NCBI GenBank assembly: GCA_046563655.1
Contig: CM102288.1
Location: forward strand, 4,712,001 to 4,776,000
Source: Yuukianura sp. NJ FZ-2021
Lineage: Eukaryota
Direction of reading: 5' to 3'
Length of the DNA: 64,000 nt
Each line of letters starts with the position of its first letter. Within the stretch, counting starts at the first letter, position 1. Below the pieces are notes generated by a model. It was not told the DNA's origin. It made no database searches and saw nothing but the letters and a program-made list of their open reading frames with translations. The translations under genes were made by a program, and so were the position numbers. Shown one piece after another: positions 25,201-64,000 of the stretch.

Positions 25201-28200
25201 CTGCGCAGACGATTGAAAATACTTGAGAAGTGCAAAAATCGAGTTCAACTTCCGGTGGACTTGAACAATCAGCGACGTAGGAAATTGTAAAGTACACTTC
25301 GGCCCCAAGTTTAGAAGCGATGATGAACTAGAAATCGAAAAATTTTTAAAGTTAACAAAATCTTTCAAAAGTTTTGAAAAAGAAGAAAATTGTGTGGCTT
25401 GCCGCTTCCAAAATTGTTATCACGCCTAGACCAGTTCGTAGTTTGTTAAAGCTCGGATTCGTGAATGCAGGCGTAGCGCAACAGGCCCTCATGGCGTAAA
25501 ATTTCAAAAATTGCAAATTCGCAAATTGTCAAATTTGGATGATTAGTTTTTGAAGTACTTGTGATTAAAGAACTGAGACTTGCGGAAGGAAAAATAAGTC
25601 ACGTAGTTAGTACAGACAGGTTTCAGGATTATAACTTCCACTGGGAAGTTGCATTTGAAGATTTTTGCAAAATCAGCATTCTTGGAAGACGAGATTTTGC
25701 AAAAATGCTTGGAGGATCATTTTGACTGGTTGAGCTCAACTGAATCTTAAGTCAGCAGGACTCATTAAATCCACACAAAAATGAGCTTCGTGGATGTTTC
25801 TTGTGGAGGTTTAACCTTTGGCAGAGTACTACTGGAGCCATTAAACTCCTTAATGGGCCGAGTGTCGTCTGACACTTAAATCATAATGGATGTTTGTTTT
25901 GTACTTTTCATTGTGACTCATTCTTTTTATGTTTTGTGTTTCCAGAGATGAGGAACGACAATTGGCTGAAGCGGAGGTACAGCAGGGTAACAGTTTTGGA
26001 AACCTGAGTAATGGGGGCACTGGAACGATGAAATCAGTGTCCAATGGAACGACTCATTCTGGAAATGGAACTCTGGGGCACAAAACGATGGGCAGTCCTG
26101 GAGCGGTCAAGAAGCGACAGTCAAGGCTTCTGACGAAACTGAACATGGGAGATGCCAAAGATGATATTCATGTGAGAACTAAAAAATGACGGAATTTTTT
26201 AAGAAGTTTCGTGTGATAAAAAATAAATACATGCGTATTTATGTATTGATGCGTTTTGGTTTGGTTTAGGTGTGTATCCTCTGCCTGCGTGCCATAATGA
26301 ACAACAAGCATGGGCTGAGCAATGTGATCCAGCAGCAGGAAGCCATTAATGCAATTGCCCTTAGTCTCAAGCACAACAGTCTGAGAACGAAAGCACTCGT
26401 CCTGGAACTACTGGCAGCCATTTGCCTCGTCCAGGGTGGACACAGAATCATACTCAAGGCCTTTGACAACTTCAAAGATGTTAGTTTTGAGAAAAATTTT
26501 GAAAATTTTCTATTTGGAGATGATTTTTTGAAAATGGAATTCAGCAATGAATGTTTTCTTGTGGCAGGTCTGTGGCGAAAGGAGAAGGTTTGAGACTCTC
26601 GTAGACCATTTCATGAATTTTGAATTTTTTCATGTCGAATTCATGGTGAGGAATACGAAATAGAATTAACGAATGTTTTTTTGGAGGTCAATGAAATTAT
26701 TGAAATTGTAAAATGGTTTTGATTCTTTTGTTCCTAGGCCTCATGCATGCAATTTATCAACATTGTGGTACATTCCTGTGGTAAGTTTCTTCTTTCCATA
26801 CTATTGGCTTACATAAGAAGGTAACTGTTAGAATTTGCCTTGAACTTTTAGAGATTGATGAGTCTTAAATTTTTTAGATGACATGAACGAACGGGTTTAT
26901 CTGCAGTACGAGTTTTCTGAACTGGGGATTGATACTTACCTGGAGAAACTGAAAAATACGCCGTCCGAGGAGCTGAGGGTATAAAACTACTTTGCTAACA
27001 ATTGAAATTGAAGAGAATGCTTAAAATAAGTTGTTTTTCAGGTTCAAATTTCTGCGTACCTGGACAATGTTTTTGATGTTGGCGCTCTCATGGAAGATAG
27101 TGAAACGAAGTCAGCCGCTATTGAGCGCGTGTCTGAACTGGAAGATGAAGTTTCCCATGTCAAAGAGATGTACCAGAAGTTGGAAATGGATTCTTTGTCT
27201 CGAATGGTGGAACTGGAGTCTCGAATCAAGGAAATTGCAGATGAGAGGGATTCACTGATATCAAAGCAGAAAGAAATCAGTGATGAGGTGACGACCCTGA
27301 GACGGACAGTGACGCAGAAGGAAGAAGAATCCAGAAGCTTGCGGGCGAAGATTAGAAATAGTGGAAGCCACCTCACTGAACCAGATTCAACGTCCAAGAG
27401 TCCAGTGCCGTCTGCTGGTCCACCACCTCCAGCCCCACCACCGCCGCCACCTCCTGCACCTCCAATGGCGGGACCACCTATGCCACCACCTCCTCCGCCT
27501 TCGTTTCCTGGTCTTGGAGGACCTCCACCTCCACCAATGTTTGGTGGCAAATCGAATGTGACAATCAAGAGAGCCTTGCAACCGAAATGTAAACTTCCGA
27601 CCTTGAACTGGACGGTGAGGATTTACAAATTTTTGCCAAAAAACGTAACGTACGTAAGAGAAGACTTAAGGGAAACGATTTTTTTTTGTAATGTGTAGGT
27701 ATTGAAACCACGAGAGGTGAAGGGAACCGTGTTCAATCAGTTGGATGACTCCAAGTACTACAGTTCCATTGACTTTGATGATTTTGAAAAAGTTTTCAAA
27801 ATTGGACCTGCGTCTGGAGCTGGTAACTTTCTTTTTTGAAAAAAACAACGTCGAAAATAGTTATTTTATTTGGTTTTTTACATATTTTTAGCACAAAACA
27901 TGGATGAATCGGATGGAGATTTGGCAAGTCTGGGATCGAAGCGCTTCAAAAAGCCCGAAGCAGTTTCACTCATGGAGCACACCAGATTGCGAAATATGGG
28001 TACGCTGATTTTCCACAACAAAAGTTTCATTTTTCAAAAAAATGTTTTTGAAAAAAGTTGTGTTTTGTTTTATTTGAACGCAGCAATCTCTCGTCGAAAG
28101 TTGGAACAACCGATAGAAACGGTGGTGCGAGCAATCAATTCGTTAGATCTGAATGTACTCAAGTTAGAGCAAGTGGAAATCCTTCAACGAATGGTACCTA

Positions 28201-29631
28201 ATGAGCAAGAGGTAATTTTTATTCAAGTTATGAAGATTGAGAGCAATTAGTTTAGTTTGTCAATTAATTTCCTGTTTTGTTCCACAGTCCAAGTTGTACC
28301 GTGAGTACACCTTGTCCAGGAAAGACACGAATTTGCTCACAGATGAAGACAAGTTCCTGCTGCACTTGTCCAGAGTGGAGAGAATCACGACCAAGTTGGG
28401 AGTGATGGCCTACATTGCCAATTTCACAGAAACTGCAAACATGATTCAACCACAAATCCATGCACTCATCATGGCCTCAAGATCAGTTCGGTATGGTGAA
28501 AATTTAAATATAAATCTAAATTCGAAGTAGCTTTAGTTTGATTAAGTTTAAAAGAGTTGGTTTTACGTTAAACATGTTTTACTGAAAACAGTGTTTCTGA
28601 GAAATTCCACCAACTGCTGGAAATTATTTTGGCCTTTGGAAATTACATGAATTCTGCCAAGAGAGGACCGGCATACGGATTTAAAATTCAGGTAAATCAG
28701 AATCGTTTTGATTTTTTTTTTTTTACTTTTTTGGAAGTTGAAAAACATGAGTATTTGACGTTTTTTTTTGTGTTACAGAGTTTGGAGTGCCTTACGGATA
28801 CAAAATCGGTGGACAGGAGACAGTGCTTGATGCATTACCTTGTTGAGACAGTTTCTGCAAGATTTCCAAATCTGAAAGCCTTTGAACATGAACTCCAGTT
28901 TATTGAGAAGGCGTCACAAGTCTCATTGGAAAACATTTTAAGTGACCTGCATGATTTGGAGAAGGGCATGGAGATGACGAAGAAGGAAGCTGAATTTTTG
29001 AAACAAAAGAATGAAGTGAACCCGGTAAGATTTTCGATTTTTTAATGCTTTTGACGAAATCAGGATTTTCAAAAATGTATTTTATTTCAGGTTATGCGTG
29101 ACTTCCTTGCTTCGGCTGAAGATAGACTGAACAAAATTAAGGCGGAGTGCAAGACTGCGGTGAATGACTTTGGAGACTGCGTAGAATTCTACGGAGAGGA
29201 ACGCCAACAAACCAGTACGACAACATTCTTTTCATCGATTCTCAAGTTTACAAGAGCCTACAACACAGCAGAGGCAGAGAATGAACAGAAGAAGCGCGTT
29301 TCAATGAAAGCTCAGTCTCCGCCAGAACCCGTCAAAGTTACCGGAAAGAAGCAACAGGTAAAATGTCTAACCTCTTACTTTGTTTTTGTTGTGTTTTTTC
29401 AATTCTAACTTTTTAATTTTGGATTTTCAGGAGGCTCTCATCAACGAGCTGAAACGACGCCAAGTTTCTGAAAACAACAAAAAGTTGCAGGAAACTTACC
29501 ACGGAGCGCTGGAAGACATTTTATCTGACCTCAAAAACGAACCGTACCGCAGAGCTGATGCACTGAGGAGAAGTCAGCGACGAAAAATTGATCAACGCCT
29601 TTCTCGAAACTTTGAAGAAATGGACGTTTAG
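22251..29631 (+). CDS. FMNL: Formin-like protein (FMNL/Frl; GBD-FH3-FH1-FH2-DAD)
   Basis: MGNT N-myristoylation-type start; [67 protein letters not shown]; poly-Pro FH1 (27415-27540); FH2 [45 protein letters not shown]. Confidence 0.93.
24823..25492 (-). CDS. Nested antisense gene: small four-transmembrane protein (~170 aa) inside a formin intron
   Basis: Exons 25492-25403, 25327-25139, 25056-24823, all phase 0, ATG to TGA without internal stop; intron 2 is GTAAGT..TTTTAG; intron 1 uses GCAAGC (or a weak upstream GTGATA)..TTTCTAG; four hydrophobic segments. Confidence 0.72.
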
Positions 29632-30436
29632 CAAGAAAAACAAAGTTTTTGGAAAAACGTTTTTGGATTGATTTGTGTTACTTTTTTGATTTCAAAAAAC
29701 CAACTTCCGTTATACTCATTTTTAGTCATGAGCGTGACAGTGGAGGCTGTTTCTCATCTTTTTCCTTTGAATGGAGTCTGATGTTCCTGGATTATTTTTG
29801 TAATGAGTGTGACATCGCGTGCATGTGAACGTTGTTGTCGCTGCCAATCTTTTCTTCAAAGTCCTCCCGAATGTGCCTTTTTGCAACTGAATGTTCAAGT
29901 GCTTCAATGTACATTTTATATTTAACTGGTATTGTTATTGTATTAGTTAATTACAGTTAATTACTTGATTACTTGGTGTTAATTAAGGTTTGACTTAAGT
30001 GATACCCGATGAAAAGCCTCTTCCATCCCTTTGACAAACATGAAATGTGATTCCGATCTGATTACTAGAACGAAACGGAAGCGTCCTTTGTTATGTGCTT
30101 ACAACTCAAAATTCATTGCCTAGGTTTACTATTTACTTTAATAAGTTGTTCCATTCCAGAACTCTGTTCAATACAACATTATAACAAATAAACTTGTTGT
30201 ATTAATTGATAAGTTCATTAATTATTGATTAATTAAGTGTTCTTTTATTTGCGGGATATAAGAACATTTAAGTTTTATTTTACAGTAGTTGGCTTTTGTG
30301 TTTGTTTTTTTCTGATTCTGGACATCGTTTTTAAGAAAGAAAATTCCGTTTTTTTGACAAGATTGAAAGGAAAGGTTTTTGTTTTTTTGAAATTCTAAAG
30401 TTTTTTGGAATTTAAAAAAAAACCTGCTATGTAACT

Positions 30437-31065
30437 TCAAATTTTGTGGCACCTGAAATTCATATTTTTTTTCTGAAAATCGTGTTTGACTTGAAAAAAA
30501 TTAACGAATAGTTATGATTTTACTTACATCGGGATTGGCTGGCACGTTTCGACCTACGAAAATATAAATATAATTAGTTTAATTTGGTGTAATTAGTTTA
30601 AGTATTAATTAATTAAGTATTAATATCAATTGACCTTATATGCTTGTCCACAAAAGATAGGGGTCATGACACAAGTTGTTCTAGAAGGGCATGTCTGTTC
30701 TTCACACGTAATTGGTTGAGTTCGGTCTCCTTCATCATTAATTTTTAAATTTAACTTTAAAACTGCTAATGCAAACATTAGGTTTGCGAAATCACAAATT
30801 TTGTATTGGTTTCACCGTTTGCTGGAGGAAGAGGTGGTGGTGGTGGTGCTGGATTTCTGTCTGCTAAAAAATATGTATTTTTGAATTTTTTGTTTTCCAA
30901 TTTCAATTTTTTTTTCGAAATTTGGGTTTATGCTTTACCTTCCCCTTGACCCTTGTCTCGATCTCTGTTTCTGTTTCTGTTTCTGCCTCTATTTCGGTTA
31001 TTTTGAGCCTCGATTGCACAAAACAGGAAAAATAGAAACAAAACAACTAAAATCCTGTTTTTCAT
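30437..31065 (-). CDS. Small secreted peptide (~102 aa): signal + Arg/Asn repeat + poly-Pro + 6-Cys domain (5 exons)
   Basis: Exons 31065-30939, 30860-30816, 30729-30635, 30553-30528, 30452-30437 with GT-AG ends and consistent phases give MKNRILVVLFLFFLFCAIEA-QNNRNRGRNRNRNRDRDKGQGEDRNPAPPPPPLPPANGDRTQPITCEEQTCPSRTTCVMTPIFCGQAYKVETCQPIPMCHKI*. Confidence 0.75.
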
Positions 31066-31510
31066 TTTAAAAATCCTTTTCAATTATATTTTAACTGAAT
31101 TTTTAAGATTTCAAACTAGTAGAGCTGAAAACTGAACTGAAACTGGAATTTCAATTTGAAAAGTTGCAAAACGCAATACTGGTCAAATGAGTTCCGGAGG
31201 TCATGTCACTCGTCATTCTATCCATTGTTTCTTTGTCATAATTGTCAAACTGTCTCTCCATTTTCAATTTTAATAATCCCAGCTATTTGCAATTTTTTTT
31301 AACAATTAGGCAGATCAGAAAAAATATTGGCACACCTAAAAATAATTCAGCAATGACAAGCATTACATCAGCGTTCGCAACAAAATGGTTACTACATCAT
31401 TTCATATTCAACGATAATGATTCATTTTGTAACAAAAAATTGTAACAAAGAAAACTAAAATTTTTCAAAAAAAATTCAAGTCATGTAACGCAATCCTCTG
31501 AATTGGAAAA

Positions 31511-32299
31511 ATGCAAGTCAAATTAACTGAAAAGCTTCAACTTCGTTTCTTTTGTAAAATTTTTCTCATGTCCCAAGCGTTTCTACTTTTGTTCAATGGA
31601 CAAGTGATCTCCGGAAACGCCGAATCTTCTACCGAAGTGACCAACCAAAGAGTTCGTCTAGTGCTGGACCGTCTTCGTCTCTTCCGATCCTACGGTCCGG
31701 AAGATCGCTTGAACGCTGAAAAGCCCAATTTGAAACACGGTTCACCTTGTGTTCCTGTTCCAGCCACTCCAGATCCAGAACTCGGTTCGCCACAAACCGA
31801 CGAAACCCGAATAGATGTCGGTCGAAACGAACCGGATGACTGCCTCAACAGTTCGGTTCAGGATCTGCGAAATCCGAACTACACGCAAGCGCTGGAATGC
31901 GATGCTCAACGCAAGATTTGTCTCTGTTTGGTTCGGTTTCCACACCAAGATGGTCTACAAGTGAACGGAAGATGCATGATCTCTGAGGGACTGCTGTGCA
32001 ACGACAATGACGACTGCGCTGGAAGTCATCTCCAGTGCAACGAAAAAGCAACTGCCAGACCAAGTTTGTCCAAGAGTTATAATGCACTTGGGCAACTGTA
32101 TGACTATGCTGACGAGGAAGGGGCCAACGAAGACAAGTTTTGTACAAGAGGATCCAATAGTGTCCAGAATACTGAGGCACGAGTTGCTGTGGTCGAAGAC
32201 ACTCAAAACCCAGATACTGGAATGGAAAATACTGGCTGTTGCCAGGTTTGCAAAATTCAATATATCGTTGGTTTTTCATTGCTAATTAATTTACTGTAA
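31511..32299 (+). CDS. Intronless Cys-rich secreted/GPI-type protein (EB-module-like), 262 aa
   Basis: N-terminal hydrophobic signal-like segment, Cys cluster ECDAQRKICLC..GRCMISEGLLCNDNDDCAGSHLQC..FC, hydrophobic C-terminus IQYIVGFSLLINLL. Confidence 0.65.
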   Translation: MQVKLTEKLQLRFFCKIFLMSQAFLLLFNGQVISGNAESSTEVTNQRVRLVLDRLRLFRSYGPEDRLNAEKPNLKHGSPCVPVPATPDPELGSPQTDETRIDVGRNEPDDCLNSSVQDLRNPNYTQALECDAQRKICLCLVRFPHQDGLQVNGRCMISEGLLCNDNDDCAGSHLQCNEKATARPSLSKSYNALGQLYDYADEEGANEDKFCTRGSNSVQNTEARVAVVEDTQNPDTGMENTGCCQVCKIQYIVGFSLLINLL

Positions 32300-32434: not shown

Positions 32435-32790
32435 ATTTGCAAATTGGGATTGCTGATTGCTGAATTTTTGCAAATTGGGATTGTTGATCGAAAATTTTTG
32501 CAAATTGGATTGTATATTGCTGAATTTTTGCAAATTGGGATTGCTGATTTTTTGCAAATTGGGATTGCTGATGGTTGAATTTTTGCAAATCGGGATTGTT
32601 GATTGTGAATTTTTGTGAATTGGGATTTCTGATTGATGAACTCTTGCAAATTGGGATTGCTGATTGCTAAATTTTTGGGATTTGGGATTGGTGATTACGA
32701 ATTTTGGCAAATCGGGATTGCTGATTGCTGAATTTTTGTAAATGGAGATTGGTGAATTGTTGTAAATTTTGACTGCTGGATTTTTGCAAA
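32435..32790. repeat. Degenerate ~31-bp minisatellite (TGAATTTTTGCAAATTGGGATTGCTGATTGC), roughly 11-12 units
   Basis: Direct reading; explains the repetitive spurious ORFs at 32352-32926. Confidence 0.9.
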
Positions 32791-35042
32791 TTATTCTGAC
32801 TTGGCGTTGGAATTGACTTGGTTGCAGTTCGTGTTGGCTGGATTTGGCCAGTCGCAGATTTTGGTTTCTGGATTCCACTCGGTTCCTTCTCGGCACGAAA
32901 ACTCCACTGGAACGCCATGGACACACCAGTAGTACTGAAATTTAAGATGTCATTAATAAGAAATCAAAGGTCAACATAAAGGTCAAAGGTCAAATTACCT
33001 TTCGACAATCCTCTTCATGCGGATAGTACTGTTGTTTGGAACAATCGTATGTCCCTTCCGGTAATCTGTGGTCTTCATCAGGAGTGTTTGTTGTTCCAAC
33101 CTCTGACTCTGGCGTTCCCGTTCCGACTTCAACCGGTTTCGGTGTCACTGCAGCGGTCGTTGGCTTTGGTGTCGGATTTTGCCAACTCGGAGTCACTGAT
33201 TGGCCAGACGGAACTGGAGGTTTGAGCCAATCAGGGCGCGTGTCTGGCCGTGGCTGAGCCACCGGGACAATGTACCCCTTCATGCCTGGCAAAACATGGA
33301 AAACTGAAAGTTGTCAACAATTTTGGGTTGGAGTAAGGCAAAAAGTATTGTTTGTAACCTTTTTGAAGAACGTCAATGAGAACGTCTTTTGGACCACAGA
33401 CACCGCGGAAGTCGTCCATGTCAATTGCCCAGTTCATGGCTCCAGCATAGCCCTTCTTCTTGATCCAGTCCATTTTGATTTTCAGCGAATCAGCGTCTTC
33501 GTAACCAATCCAGTTTTTCGCATAGAAGGTGTATGGCACAAGTCCAACGTTGTCATAAGCCTTCGTCCAATTCGGAGACTTTTGGTTCAAGCAAATCTGT
33601 AATTGGAAAAAAAGGAATTAAATTTTAGACAACGATTTTCAAATTCAGAATTTCAAATTTTGGAAAATCAAACCTCGTAGTAGCTAATGAAACCTCGAGC
33701 ATTTGTGTAATTTCCAGGATCTCCACCGTTCATCCACTTCACAATGTACGATCCAGGCTTCGTCTGTTTCTCATCGCTGAAATTGAAAACGAATTTGGAA
33801 AATATAAAACTGAAATATGAAATATGAAATTTTTGAAAATTTGAGTTGAATTTCAAAGGTTTGATGTGAAACTGGCTAGGTTATTCGAGTTGCTTCAAGT
33901 AAATTTTGATTGTCACCCCAAAATGAAACTTCGTCCGTAAAATGCTGTTCCGATGACGAGTTTGTCCGGTTGGCATCCCATGTCCACCCAGAGTTGCGTC
34001 CCATCATTGACATTGAGATTCTCATAAGCATATTCGTCAAACGGTCTTTTGTACAGCGGAGTGTGGACATCAGCAAATCCAGCCCAGTTTCCTCTGAGGT
34101 CATAGGTCATCACATGCACTGCATTCATCACAGCACACAACTCACGAACATAGTAGCCCTCTTGCAACCGAAACTTAGCTACAGGAACGGCCATTGTGAT
34201 TTCCCAGGCAGAATTGGCCTTGTCAAAGGCACTTCGCAATTCTTGCACGAATTCCCAGAAACGATCTTTGTCTGCCATCGTGCCTCCGCGGTCAGTCGCT
34301 GCTGGATACTCCCAGTCCAAGTCAAGGCCATCAAAGTCATACTTCTTCAAAAACTCTGAAAAACAACCAAAACATTCAAAATTTTACAAATTTTTCAAAA
34401 AAATGATTCCAAAACAAAAATCTTACCTACGACACTGGAGATGAACGATTTCCGTCTTGCTGGAACTGACACCAACTGGCTGTATTTTTTCCCGCCCTGT
34501 TTACAATAAAAGGCGGCACACCAATACATTTATAATTTTGTGTAAATAAATACTAATAAATTGTACAATAATATTATATTAATAAGTTATCATGAATAAT
34601 ACGTCTACCTCTGCCCAACCTCCTACTGCCACCGTTGTTGTCAACTTTGGATTCTGTTTTTTGAGATCCGTAAATTTTTTGAAATTGCCTTTTTCCACAT
34701 CAAGCTATGAAAAATGCTAGAATTAGACACTTGAAATGCTTTTGGTTGGTCAAAGGTCAAAGGTCACCGTACCTCTTGGTCCAGAATGAGAACTTCCCAA
34801 GTGACATTGGACACTCCGATGAATGCGTAGACGAGGTGAGTGCACTTGGTAATTGGAATGTCATCGACCGTGTACTTCCCAATTCCTGGACGATATACAG
34901 CCCAGTTTGAGTAGTAGCAAACGACTCTCGCTTCCTTTCCACCCATCCCGTCTGATTCAGTGTATGCTGCAGTAAGGGGCGGGGCTAAAACCAAAATTAG
35001 TTGCACAAATATTTGCACCAGCAAAATATTTGCACAACTCAT
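32791..35042 (-). CDS. Cht5: Group I endochitinase (GH18 + Pro/Thr linker + CBM14), Cht5-like
   Basis: Signal peptide; [27 protein letters not shown]; intact catalytic [38 protein letters not shown]-terminal YYWCVHG..FSC..GTEWN..ICDWP CBM14; stop at 32791-32793. Confidence 0.92.
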
Positions 35043-54378: not shown

Positions 54379-56774
54379 ATGGACTGGACAGGAACTACTA
54401 ATCGTCAGCGGTTCAACTGGTCCGGAAGAAGTTCAGCGTCCGGTTTCGGTGATTTCGTTAGTACTGAAAAACATAAAAGTTCCAGAAATGTTCAATTTTC
54501 GCGGAACGCTATTCCAAGTGATACTGAAACGGAGTATGAAGAGATTGACAATCTCACTTTCAATACAAAAGGGACTAAATCCGACAGACCAAAAGTGAAT
54601 CCCGTTGTGACAACAGTAAATAGTTTACTGGGATCGATCGTCGGTGACGTCCAGAAGGAATTTGCTTACATCTTTTCAATAGCCGGTGACCCAATGACCC
54701 CGTACACTGACGACGATGTCCGAAGAACAGCACTCGTGTCACGATTAATCCTCATCAGTATTCAGGTTTTCGATTTTTTTTTGGAAAAATTGGATTCATT
54801 TTTTGAATTGTGAAGCTTCCCGCATCTTTCTTTTTGTTTACTTTGGATCTTTATGAGCATGAAAGACCAAGAAATTCATGTGTAACTTTGACCTTTCAGA
54901 TCTTGGGGTCACTGACCGTACCACAACATGTCAACGATGGTTTCAAGACTCCATTGGACGTCAGCGCCAACGGAGCATTTGATAGCATGGTCAACTCTAC
55001 GTTTGGCGGTATGTTACTCTAAAACCTTTAACATTTCACTTACAAACCGAATATATTGTTCACATTTGTTTGTTTTAAGGATTGGCCAATTGGGACGGGC
55101 AGTACTTTTTACATATTGCCACGAAGGGGTACACACATGAGAACACGATGGCATTCTTTCCTTTGTTCCCACTCGTCGTCGGATATCTGTCCAGCATCAT
55201 CCACTTCGTTCTGTTTCCAGTCATGACTTACCACTCTCTTACACTTGTCACTGGAACCATCTTTAATTTATGGTGCTTCCAAAATGCTGCTCTTACACTT
55301 AGCAAAATCGTTCAACTCCAGACAGGCGACAGAGCAAAGTACATCCTTCCTACAGTCATGCTTCTCTTCTGCTACAATCCAGCGTCCATCTTCTTTTCAG
55401 CATTCTACTCAGAGAGTCTCTTCGCTCTTCTGACATTTAGTTGCATTCTGGAGCTGTACAAAAGGTAAGTTAATTCTAATAATTTAATAATTCTAACTTA
55501 CTTTAAATTAGTGATTAGATTAAGCATAGCGTAAGTCTTGGTCAAGAGTTAACAACAATTGAAATGTGAATTGTTTGTTACACAGGAATTTGACGAAAGC
55601 AATCATGTACGCCTCCTTGGGATGCATTTGTCGTTCCAACGGTCTCCTGAACTTTGGGCTCATCGCAGTAGCAGCATTGGCTCAAGTGACTTCTGAAATC
55701 CGAAGCGACCAGCCGAAGAAGTCGCCATTCCCACGGACTCCTCCAGAATCAGCCCAAAAACTATGGTTGGCCGCTGGAAGAAAGTTGGCCAAAATCGGGG
55801 GGATGTGTTTAATTGGAATTTCACCATTCCTTTGCTTCCAGGTACAGAATTCAAGCGTCATTTTTGAATTTGCAATCGCTTTTTCAATGTGTTGTTCAAG
55901 TATTTCAATGTTCATTTTTGATGTGACAGGCTTACTGTGTGATCCACTTTTGCAGCGACGCTAGAAGCTCCTCTCTTCCTGATTTTTGTTTCTACGATGT
56001 TCTGCCATACACGTACATTCAAAAAGCAAACTGGAACGTCGGATTTCTCCAGTAAATTCCAAAAATTTTTAATTCTAATCATAATTTTCGAAATTCAGTC
56101 ACAGGTTTCGTTTTTTTTTAACATAGGTATTTCGAGTTGAAGCAAATTCCAAACTTTGTACTTGCATTGCCAGTACTGTTGACTTTGGGATTTGAATCTA
56201 AACGCCACGCGAGAATTCAGGTTAGTAGATCCTGCTTTTTTCAAATAAATAGCTAGCTGATGAGTGTTATTGGTATAATACAATATAATATATTATATTG
56301 TATTATGAATTGGCAGGGAATCGAATTGCTTGACAAATTAAAAAATTCAAAGCAAGATTTCTACTGGAACATTCTAGAGCTGACCTTAGCGTTCCACGGA
56401 ATCTTTCTCACAGTCTTCTGCCTTCTTTGTATTCACGTCCAAGTAAGTCCAATCATGTCAATTAAACGTAGTAAATTACATCTAACGTAGTAATCTCAAA
56501 TTAATCTAACGTAGCCTGATTGACTTCACTCAATAACCGATTGACCTCCGATTCTTAATTTGCTAACTTTTGACTATAGGTTTCCACTAGGATGATCATG
56601 TCGGCCTGTCCGTACATCTACGTCTACATTGCCCAAAAGCTAACTGATGAGCGACTGCTTTTCTTGGAGAGACTCATTTCCTGGATGCCAGTGACGACAT
56701 TTATTCAAACGTGGTTCTCAATGTACTTCCTAGTCGGCACAGTCGGATTCTCCGTGGGATATCCATGGACTTAA
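54379..56774 (+). CDS. PIGV: GPI mannosyltransferase 2
   Basis: WDGQYFLHIA..GY..ENTMAFFPLFP; FCYNPASIFFSAFYSESLF; RSNG; YTYIQ..WNVGFL.YFELKQIPNFVLALP; HVQVSTR; C-terminal YPWT. Confidence 0.9.
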
Positions 56775-61639: not shown

Positions 61640-64000
61640 TCAACTACAAAGTGCTAAAGCTATGACAGGAAGGAGAACAAAATGAAGTGAGTTGATTACT
61701 AGCTGTTGACTGCTGCTCGCTGTGGAGTCTGAGGCAGGTTTTGGTGTAGAAGTGGTCGTTGTTGTTGTCGTTGGAGCTTCCGTAGGTTTCGCATGTCGTG
61801 TAATGAGGTCGCCTTGAGCGTTGGTTCCAGGCTCCGGTTCAGCCAAGATGGTTTCGACAATTTCGGATTCATCTGCAGGTGGAGCATTGGGAACAACAGA
61901 ACTTTTGTTCGTTGGAGGTTTTGAATTTTTCGTGGTCGAATTGGCGTCTCCTTCACCTTCGATAGAACGAACTGCGATGTCATCAGTCGGAGCATCTGAA
62001 CTTGACGCTGAAGCAGGAATGTTGAAATGCGTTGCGTCCACAGAGGTGGCACTCTTGAGCGCCTGAATTTGGTCCACACTGAGGAACGACAAAAGTTTTG
62101 GATTAGCCATAACTCGTTTGGCGGTGACATACGTCAAATTTCCAAGATGTGCTGGAGTTAGGCTCTGAATTTGTTGCGGTGTCATTTCCTGGACAGCCAG
62201 ATGGTGGAGTCCTTCCAGGGCCAAGGGCGAAATTGATGCAAGTGCTTCAGGCGTTAATCCTAAACACACACAAAAAGCAATCGTAAGTTCTTCAGAAATC
62301 TGTCACAATTTCAAAATCCGATGCATTTGAAAGACAAAATTAAAAAGCAGTTTCGAAGTATTGTCAACGTACCTGCCACTACAACCCCGACCGTATTGAC
62401 ATCTTCAATCGTCCAAGCGTTCGGAGGACCAAAATTGGTGGGCTGGACAGCATAGTGTGCCAGAACAGATAACGTCTGAGGTTCACATCCTTGGAGCCTT
62501 CCAAGTAAAGGACTCACGTACAAGAACATCGTCGGAGAAGAATCGAACATAATTTTCAACACAGTTTCGCTTAGGCCACAGACGATATTTCCAAGTGACC
62601 ATATCGTGGCCCTCATCAAATGTTCTTCAACTGGACGAACTTGTGTAGTATCGAGGCCATTGTCTTTCGTAAACTTGTCACCAATCACCTTCAGCTGAAA
62701 TCAGAATCCACAGAATTTCAAAAAACTTTTCCTTCGTTTTTTTTTTAAATTTGTTTTTACTAACCATTACAGGATCCGTAATTTGTGATCCAAGAACAGA
62801 AACGCTGTCCAGGTTGAGCGGCACAGAAAGGTCAATGGCCGAAATGTCAAAAGGAGTCAAGTTGTCCTTGCTTCCAGAATCAATAGAACTGAACAATCCA
62901 TTGGCAGCATTTGCATGTCCCGATGTTGACAGAGCCGTGACCAAATTTCCGAGTTCAATGAGGTTTACAGTAGTAAGAGCCTGGGTAGTTAAATTCAACT
63001 TCTGTTTGTACACTCGTAGTATTTCACGCTTCGCTGATTCACTCCAATCCACAAATCCAATTGTTTCAATGCAGTCACGCAAGTCATTTGGGTGCAGCGA
63101 TGCCAAATCCCGTGGTATGACACCGATTGCTGCAGGTCCGGCGGCTTTAATTCCCAGACATGTCAACTATTAGACAAAAACCAAACCAAAAGAATAATGT
63201 ATTCAAAAAGTTTAAATTTTACGGCGTAACGGCCAATTGGATGCAATAAAAATTCATACCTTAGGCTCCTGATTGTCCAAAATCGATCTTATACGTTCAT
63301 CATTTTTCACGGGACGAGCTGCTTGTGCTCCAGTTGGTGGTGGTTGCTGAGACTGGCCAGGTTTCGACTGTGGTGGCTGTTGAATTTTTGGTGCCGGTGG
63401 CTGTTGAAATTGTGGTGGCGGTGGCTGTTGAAATTGTGGTGCCGGTGGCTGTTGAAACTGTGGTGGCGATGGCTGTTGAAACTGTGATGGTGGCTGTTGA
63501 AATTGTGGTGACAGTGGCTGTTGAAATTGTGGTGGTGGTGGCTGTTGAAATTGTGGTGGTGGTGGCTGTTGAAATTGTGGTGGCGGTGGCTGTTGAAATT
63601 GTGGTGGTGGTGGCTGTTGAAATTGTGGTGGTGGTGGCTGTTGAAATTGTGGTGACGGTGGCTGTTGAAATTGTGGCCGTGATGGCTGTTGAAATTGTGG
63701 TGGCGGTGGCTGTTGAAATTGTGGTCGTGGTGGCTGTTGAAATTGTGGTGGTTGTGGCTGCTCTCTTGGAGGGGTCGATGGATGTGGCGTCCGTCCCGTT
63801 TGAGTAGCCATTGTTTCTGGCAAGTGAGGATGGACGATTGGAGGTTGTTGTTGTCTTGGATCCATTTGACCTTGAACCATGCCTGGAGGTTGTTGTTGTC
63901 TTGGATCCATTTGACCTTGAACCATGCCTGGAGGTGGTGGCATCGGAGCTTGCCTTCTGTACCTCTGAGAATCAAAATCCAGCGTTTCCTGGCCGCATAC
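61640..64000 (-). CDS. Otoancorin/stereocilin/mesothelin-like GPI-anchored protein with N-terminal Gln/Pro repeat (5' end outside window)
   Basis: FGPPNAWTIEDVNTVGVVVAG and GLTPEALASISP..MTPQQIQSLT resemble the conserved C-terminal region of this superfamily; Ser/Thr stalk and hydrophobic GPI-type tail; frame is open to the window edge (VCGQETLDFDSQRYRRQAP). Confidence 0.65.
63370..63760 (-). repeat. Coding 24-bp tandem repeat (PPPQFQQP, ~16 units)
   Basis: GCTGTTGAAATTGTGGTGGTGGTG units on the + strand; an adjacent 45-bp duplication (PPGMVQGQMDPRQQQ x2) lies at ~63840-63935. Confidence 0.92.

Follow-up and report, generated by a model that had tools for sequence, protein, structure and literature searches.

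A five-exon locus beside a Cht5-like chitinase gene that probably encodes a secreted, cysteine-rich orphan peptide

On the minus strand of the window (the whole 64-kb stretch of DNA that was analysed), five short exons bounded by GT and AG run from position 31065 to 30437 and, when spliced by coordinate, join in frame to give a protein of 103 residues. The locus is probably a real, independently transcribed protein-coding gene, and there is good reason, judging from the sequence, to regard its product as a secreted, cysteine-rich orphan peptide. Orphan is used here in the sense that no relative was found, not that none exists; by searches based on exon 3, the predicted product falls in no recognisable family. 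The gene is probably unannotated. The same chain of exons had been proposed in a first-pass annotation, and it was reproduced exactly. The exons and introns are as follows.

Exon 1, 31065-30939, minus strand: 127 nt, with the ATG at 31065 and donor GTAAAG; signal peptide and Arg/Asn-rich stretch.
Intron 1, 30864..30938, minus strand: 75 nt, GC 0.20, junction score 8.17; NAGNAG acceptor.
Exon 2, 30863 (or 30860)-30816, minus strand: 48 nt, GC 0.56, donor GTGAAA; proline-rich spacer.
Intron 2, 30730..30815, minus strand: 86 nt; the acceptor of the first-pass annotation is weak, with a purine-rich tract.
Exon 3, 30729-30635, minus strand: 95 nt, donor GTCAAT; cysteines 1-4 of the Cys-rich domain.
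Intron 3, 30554..30634, minus strand: 81 nt, GC 0.16, junction score 8.5; CTAAT 20 nt from the 3′ end.
Exon 4, 30553-30528, minus strand: micro-exon of 26 nt, GC 0.58, donor GTAAGT; fifth cysteine.
Intron 4, 30453..30527, minus strand: 75 nt, junction score 8.17; a rival TTTCAG acceptor lies within it.
Exon 5, 30452-30437, minus strand: 16 nt; sixth cysteine, and TGA stop at 30439-30437.

From its N-terminus, the 103-residue product consists of a signal peptide, an Arg/Asn-rich stretch (QNNRNRGRNRNRNRDRDK), the proline run PAPPPPPLPP and a cysteine block with the spacing C-x4-C-x5-C-x6-C-x8-C-x5-C, just as the first-pass annotation had described it. The leader occupies codons 1-20 (31065-31006), with MKNR as its n-region, a 10-residue Kyte-Doolittle mean of up to 3.65 and Ala20 at the -1 position; judged by rule, the signal peptide is probably cleaved after Ala20. 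The mature peptide has a pI of 9.15. Its Arg/Asn tail carries a net charge of about +5 and is devoid of hydrophobic residues, and the cysteine domain, about 34 residues from first to last cysteine, is neutral. The low-complexity parts are encoded by two simple repeats.

30964..30985, minus strand: in-frame hexamer microsatellite coding (Arg-Asn)n; TCTGTT x3.7 in the plus-strand reading, 100% matches.
30833-30852, in exon 2: (GGT)x6.7 trinucleotide repeat coding the poly-Pro run.

Low-complexity sequence encoded by microsatellites accounts for about half of the mature peptide. Its Arg-rich run and its Pro-rich run are separate, the latter being free of Arg, and the 12-mer AGAAACAGAAAC does not occur a second time in the window. 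Since in-frame microsatellites code both the Arg/Asn and the Pro parts, these are probably young and variable in length.

The window is a compact eukaryotic region, and the peptide gene lies in a 3.1-kb gap between a formin gene and a chitinase gene of Cht5 type.

32791-35042, minus strand: Cht5-like chitinase, 8 exons, 548 aa, with signal peptide, GH18 domain, Pro/Thr linker and CBM14 domain.
27327-27540 and 27861-29631, plus strand: formin, ending at 29631; its FH2 exons (27861-29408) come after an FH1-like polyproline stretch.

The chitinase is upstream of the peptide gene on the same strand, with its stop codon at 32791-32793, 1726 nt from the peptide ATG, in agreement with the distance of about 1.7 kb to Cht5 given previously. 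The formin gene converges on the peptide gene, and its proline runs provide the main cross-matches to the proline stretch of the peptide. An assignment of the peptide exons to the chitinase, as alternative 3′ exons, was rejected: the model of that gene is complete, including a CBM14 exon and a stop (32791), and exon 1 of the peptide gene carries an ATG and a leader itself.

The best database relatives of a 156-residue exon of the chitinase, among single-domain (Cht5-type) proteins of insects, decapods and barnacles, are 66-74% identical, and two multi-domain chitinases were among the matches at 39% identity. For the full-length protein no relative exceeded 64% identity (515 aligned columns). 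A quick single-gene tree placed the chitinase together with one sequence of 64% identity, outside both the pterygote insects and Multicrustacea. Because of these identities and the tree, the source is taken to be an arthropod without a close relative in the protein sets; an origin in a crustacean or decapod would not be supported by the single-gene chitinase tree.

Two further features occupy the interval between the peptide and chitinase genes.

31502-32299, plus strand: open frame of 265 codons, head-to-head with the peptide gene, the two ATGs about 450 nt apart.
32436-32771: about 11 copies of a 31-nt unit in a tandem array (76% matches), 20 nt beyond the chitinase stop.

The 265-codon frame is overlapped by long frames on both strands and has no Pfam or PDB match. 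Its Atlas feature scores, 0.91 and 0.90, are to clusters of 'hypothetical proteins' from arthropods, 11-15% of whose members have an EB module; at a recognition value of 1873, the likeness is weak. The frame may represent a second cysteine-containing secreted-protein gene that shares a bidirectional promoter with the peptide gene. The 31-nt array, which has long open frames on the minus strand, is presumed to be 3′ UTR or intergenic DNA.

Splice junctions were assessed by a simple donor-plus-acceptor score, using as reference ten introns of the window, seven from the chitinase and three from the formin. The reference introns are 64-140 nt long (8 of 10 at 64-77 nt), have a GC content of 0.21-0.38 and score 6.83-9.5. 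Introns 1, 3 and 4 of the peptide gene (8.17, 8.5 and 8.17) are inside this range of scores. Across the gene, the GC content of exons is 0.38-0.58 versus 0.16-0.26 for introns, and the GC-rich exon 4, only 26 nt long, has strong splice sites at either side.

If there were no gene here, the exons would be a chance chain in AT-rich intergenic DNA, made of a T-rich run acting as a leader, two microsatellites, and GT/AG pairs that happen to keep the frame. Certain features of the locus are indeed easily produced by chance. Shuffled windows contain on average about 1.1 ATGs that are leader-like by the strict rule, and when the filter was relaxed (three or more introns, none above 150 nt) a model could be chained from 6 of the 42 such starts in 40 shuffles, so that a leader with some in-frame chain is unremarkable alone. 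Simple repeats also make up two of the three advertised features of the product, and one acceptor is poor (4.33, exon 3). The codon usage of the coding sequence, with a log-odds of -0.003 per codon, reaches only the 83rd percentile of 515 stop-free ORFs; relative to true coding pieces (median 0.101, 5th percentile -0.031) it is in the low tail.

The outcome is different under stricter rules that match the neighbouring genes. Block-Markov shuffling of the window, a null in which the fine-scale heterogeneity found in real non-coding DNA is lost, gave 5476 leader-like starts in 300 shuffles, and 15 of them passed a strict filter whose criteria were set post hoc, with the locus already seen (ATG with hydrophobic leader, at least four introns of 50-90 nt, all junctions at 6.8 or above, at least 90 aa). 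Two of these passes also had at least three junctions scoring 8.1 or above, equal to those of the locus, and in the 300 shuffled windows there were none with an even cysteine number of six or more, and none in which the GC content of each intron lay below that of each exon. The real window had 31 starts, of which 3 passed: the peptide locus, the chitinase start at 35042, and a methionine codon at 55148. The strict filter picks real genes, because the two passes other than the peptide locus are confirmed genes. The spliced frame at the peptide locus is beyond chance. A GC-rich micro-exon of 26 nt with strong flanking sites is likewise hard to reconcile with a chance chain, and that explanation is considered unlikely. 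The ATG at 55148 was rejected as the start of a relative of the peptide, as it is an internal Met of a mannosyltransferase exon.

55079-55468, plus strand: exon of PIG-V (GPI mannosyltransferase 2), PF04188, E=1e-21.

Sequence signals are also found on both sides of the coding region.

31093..31140, minus strand: three initiator-like TCAGTT motifs at 28-75 nt upstream of the ATG, a putative core promoter with transcription start.
30244..30279, minus strand: AATAAA twice, at 158 and 188 nt after the stop codon, resembling polyadenylation signals.

The arthropod initiator consensus is TCAGTY, and the three TCAGTT motifs have their first bases at 31140, 31135 and 31098 (minus strand). Clusters of this type (at least three in 60 nt) occur once in the real window and were present anywhere in 15 of 500 shuffled windows. 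The position of the cluster, directly upstream of the locus and on the correct strand, argues against a chance chain. The AATAAA signals past the stop are weak evidence, the motif being common in AT-rich DNA.

Several acceptors have close competitors that would alter the product of the gene. The exon 2 acceptor is TAGCAG, a NAGNAG, so that the exon starts at 30863 or 30860, and this was correctly recognised in the first-pass annotation, as was the presence of an alternative, in-frame upstream acceptor for exon 3. The latter has its last intron base at 30766 or 30763, which are themselves a TAGCAG NAGNAG pair, and use of these sites gives an intron 2 of 50 or 53 nt and adds 12 or 11 residues, respectively. 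Intron 2 scores 4.33 with the acceptor chosen previously, below all ten reference introns (6.83-9.5), versus 6.83 with the alternative acceptor, and a branch-like CTAAT is 15 nt upstream of 30763 and 48 nt from the exon 3 acceptor of the first-pass annotation. In intron 4, the rival TTTCAG acceptor has its last intron base at 30473, 20 nt upstream of 30453, giving an intron of 55 nt. It scores 8.5 and leads to a product with five cysteines, versus 8.17 and six cysteines for 30453. The sole branch-like motif of intron 4 (TTAAT) is 28 nt upstream of 30473 and 48 nt upstream of 30453. The sixth cysteine would therefore depend on a putative choice of acceptor for intron 4. Retention of intron 3 would introduce a stop two codons on, leaving a product with four cysteines.

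These sites raise the possibility of a real gene with a different product: the better-supported acceptors would yield 112-115 residues, with an insert of 11-12 residues ahead of the cysteine block and maybe a five-cysteine C-terminus, or four cysteines if intron 3 is retained. Five cysteines might imply a free thiol or a disulfide-linked dimer. Besides the higher scores and closer branch-like motifs of the alternative acceptors (30766/30763 and 30473), the spacing fits that of the reference set, where 6 of 10 introns have a YTRAY motif 14-29 nt from the 3′ end. However, the alternative introns, of 50-55 nt, would fall below the whole reference range (64-140 nt for ten introns), the inserted and terminal codons are AT-rich or consist of A-runs and so have an intron-like look, and an even cysteine count is the norm in secreted disulfide domains. 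A different product is accordingly a substantial possibility, with a chance somewhat below even.

Database searches and folding took as query either exon 3, whose 32 residues include four of the six cysteines, or the 61-residue frame that surrounds it, and with a 32-residue query only close relatives are detectable. A word-index search with the 61-aa frame found no homologue among proteins of 33-107 aa, and none at E ≤10 among proteins of 108-2000 aa. An exhaustive phmmer search of exon 3 against 1.84 billion representatives returned a single match (P0001, E=7.3e-4), which was set aside as spurious: the protein is repetitive (846 aa), and the alignments are weak ones to 11 of its repeats that match no cysteine. 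A PDB sequence search with exon 3 gave 0 matches at E up to 10, and in Pfam this exon matched EGF_Pikachurin only, at E=0.1 and with 12.9 bits where the cut-off is 27. In the Atlas feature search, the best scores for exon 3 were 0.77 and 0.75, below the 0.9 lead level, and members of the second of these clusters carry TILa (82%) and FOLN (61%). Exon 3 does not match the CBM14 profile (PF01607) at E up to 10, and the cysteine block, at about 34 residues, compares with a profile of 53 positions and six widely spaced cysteines; as a positive control, the CBM14 exon of the chitinase scores 9.7e-11. A resemblance of the domain to a follistatin-N module had been suggested earlier, and this stands for the opening spacing C-x4-C-x5-C, but exon 3 alone has no match to the FOLN profile (PF09289) at E up to 10.

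Two of the checks proposed with the first-pass annotation were a tBLASTn search for paralogs and a structure prediction. When the spliced product and its halves were compared with the 64-kb window by tblastn, no paralogue was detected; apart from the locus itself, only low-complexity proline matches were obtained, mostly in the formin FH1 and EAF regions. No Rfam family reached its gathering score anywhere in the 64 kb. AlphaFold2 gave a model of exon 3 alone (four of six cysteines) with a mean pLDDT of 77.6 and a beta-hairpin between cysteines 3 and 4, but in a Foldseek comparison of this model, which is without the last two cysteines, 0 of 19 PDB matches were at E ≤0.001. The best of these non-significant matches were spider toxins/knottins (E ≥1.5, probability ≤0.21), and the list also included factor IX EGF domains, hirustasin and the Cys-rich repeats of the insulin receptor. 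The earlier description of the peptide as possibly undescribed survives these searches: with exon 3 or the 61-aa frame as query there was no homologue and no Pfam or PDB match, and the window holds no paralogue. The absence of homologues in exon 3-based searches could be cited in favour of a chance chain. It is uninformative in this respect, because the neighbouring chitinase itself has no relative above 74% identity, and close kin of the source are missing from the protein sets.

Crustacean antimicrobial peptides of bipartite Arg/Pro-rich and Cys-rich layout were the comparison made in the first-pass annotation. According to excerpts of two reports, penaeidins and hyastatins consist of a signal peptide, a Pro-rich domain and a six-cysteine domain (PMC4954822, PMC9409781), the cysteines forming an array of C-X2-3-C-X9-10-CC-X5-CC (PMC4954822); penaeidins have a pI of 9.34-9.84 and a mass of 4.7-7.2 kDa, and hyastatin a mass of 11.7 kDa (PMC9409781). 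Like the peptides described in these excerpts, the product has a signal peptide, a low-complexity, Pro-containing N-terminal part and a six-cysteine C-terminal block, and its mature form is cationic and under 15 kDa. Its array, 4-5-6-8-5 without a CC doublet, differs from that of the family as given in the excerpt of PMC4954822, which bears out the earlier remark that the Cys spacing is unlike that of crustacean antimicrobial peptides. No sequence similarity to penaeidins or hyastatins was detectable. Because it lacks the family array, the peptide is not a member of the penaeidins/hyastatins. As for the bipartite layout, the order of the parts agrees with the crustacean type, but Arg and Pro form separate, microsatellite-coded runs in place of a mixed Pro/Arg domain.

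Stylicins, as characterised in the excerpt of PMC9409781, are anionic, secreted peptides of penaeid shrimps only, with a Pro-rich N-terminus and 13 conserved cysteines. The product shares with them a proline-rich N-terminus followed by a cysteine-rich C-terminus, and predicted secretion. Unlike the stylicins of that excerpt, it is cationic (pI 9.15) and has 5-6 cysteines rather than 13, and so does not belong with them.

A closer parallel in kind is offered by the bacteriocyte-specific cysteine-rich (BCR) peptides of aphids. In the excerpted text of PMC3574423 these are orphan peptides with a signal peptide and 6 Cys, lineage-restricted and without a Pfam domain, 69-79 aa long in the table rows concerned, and two of their genes were missing from the official gene set. 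The product resembles them in its small size, its signal peptide, its six cysteines and the lack of a Pfam match, a likeness of kind and not of homology. It differs in that BCRs, as that excerpt describes them, form local clusters of paralogues, whereas the peptide has no paralogue in the 64-kb window, and in that no N-terminal extension, cationic or rich in proline, is described for them. Secreted, cysteine-rich peptides restricted to one lineage are the kind to which the product comes nearest: it has the size, the leader and the even number of cysteines of this group, and no domain or homologue was found for it with queries of 32 or 61 residues.

The cysteine block can also be compared with EGF-like and FOLN modules, which have C-x-C between cysteines 4 and 5. 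The opening C-x4-C-x5-C and the beta-hairpin after cysteine 3 are shared with these modules, but the gap between cysteines 4 and 5 is 8 residues in the peptide. In a rival reading, the gene is real but its disulfide module is an EGF-like or other small binding domain that serves a purpose other than killing microbes; the product might then be a protease inhibitor, act in signalling as a ligand or cytokine, or form part of cuticle, moulting fluid or matrix. Such a reading draws on the resemblance of C-x4-C-x5-C-x6-C, with its hairpin between cysteines 3 and 4, to the N-terminal half of EGF-like modules, and on the sole Pfam signal (EGF_Pikachurin, E=0.1), the TILa/FOLN cluster that was the second Atlas match (0.75), and the factor IX EGF, hirustasin and insulin-receptor repeats in the non-significant Foldseek list (best E 1.5), although all of these matches are below significance thresholds and EGF needs C-x-C where the peptide has 8 residues. 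The neutral cysteine domain and the hydrophobic-free cationic tail are also in keeping with it. The neighbouring chitinase of moulting type, and the divergent frame with its weak likeness to EB-module clusters, point the same way, but adjacency of genes is weak evidence in animals, and the peptide shows no recognisable reactive-site motif from a known family of inhibitors. Taken together, a non-microbicidal binding module is rated at close to an even chance, slightly below it.

The gene model suggests how the predicted peptide might work. It would enter the ER by way of a classical signal peptide, probably cut after Ala20, to leave a mature peptide of 83 to 95 residues in three parts. The first would be a hydrophilic, flexible tail rich in Arg/Asn, with a net charge of about +5, and the second a rigid polyproline spacer. 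The third, a C-terminal block of about 36 residues with five or six cysteines, would probably fold as a small, disulfide-locked beta-hairpin module; it is the sole part likely to be under structural constraint, and the likely binding unit. If the peptide acts in defence, the cationic tail may direct it to anionic microbial surfaces, while the disulfide module would confer stability and bind the target.

A secreted defence effector, built like the chimeric antimicrobial peptides of crustaceans, would be the likeliest single role, and a tentative one, with the chances well against it. The roles of inhibitor, ligand and matrix component each rank below defence, and together they are likelier than defence. 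The hydrophobic-free tail, the absence of mixed Pro/Arg sequence, the neutral cysteine domain and a cysteine array other than that of penaeidins/hyastatins all speak against a defence role. Defence, chitin-binding or inhibitor activity, as put forward in the first-pass annotation, would be suggested by the layout of the peptide. That the peptide gene adjoins a chitinase gene is no evidence of function. A bolder proposal, that the peptide represents an undescribed three-disulfide fold and family with a defence role, its N-terminal half recently built from in-frame microsatellites, in an arthropod lineage whose close relatives the protein sets lack, is quite improbable; if true, it would mean that a host-defence peptide had been assembled partly de novo from simple-sequence DNA.

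The far end of the window has an open frame without a Pfam match.

63254-64000, minus strand: open frame running off the window end, with repeated Gln/Pro-rich units (PPPPQFQQ-like).

Arthropod genomes contain many orphan peptides that are secreted and rich in cysteine, and the locus thus opens no long-standing question. If it is transcribed, it would be one more short, multi-exon gene for a secreted peptide that is missed by ORF-based and many automatic annotations. The layout makes the product, from a lineage with no near kin in the protein sets, a reasonable candidate for peptide discovery, whether in defence, inhibition or signalling, and the locus illustrates how the charged and the proline-rich portion of a peptide of this kind can come from microsatellites.
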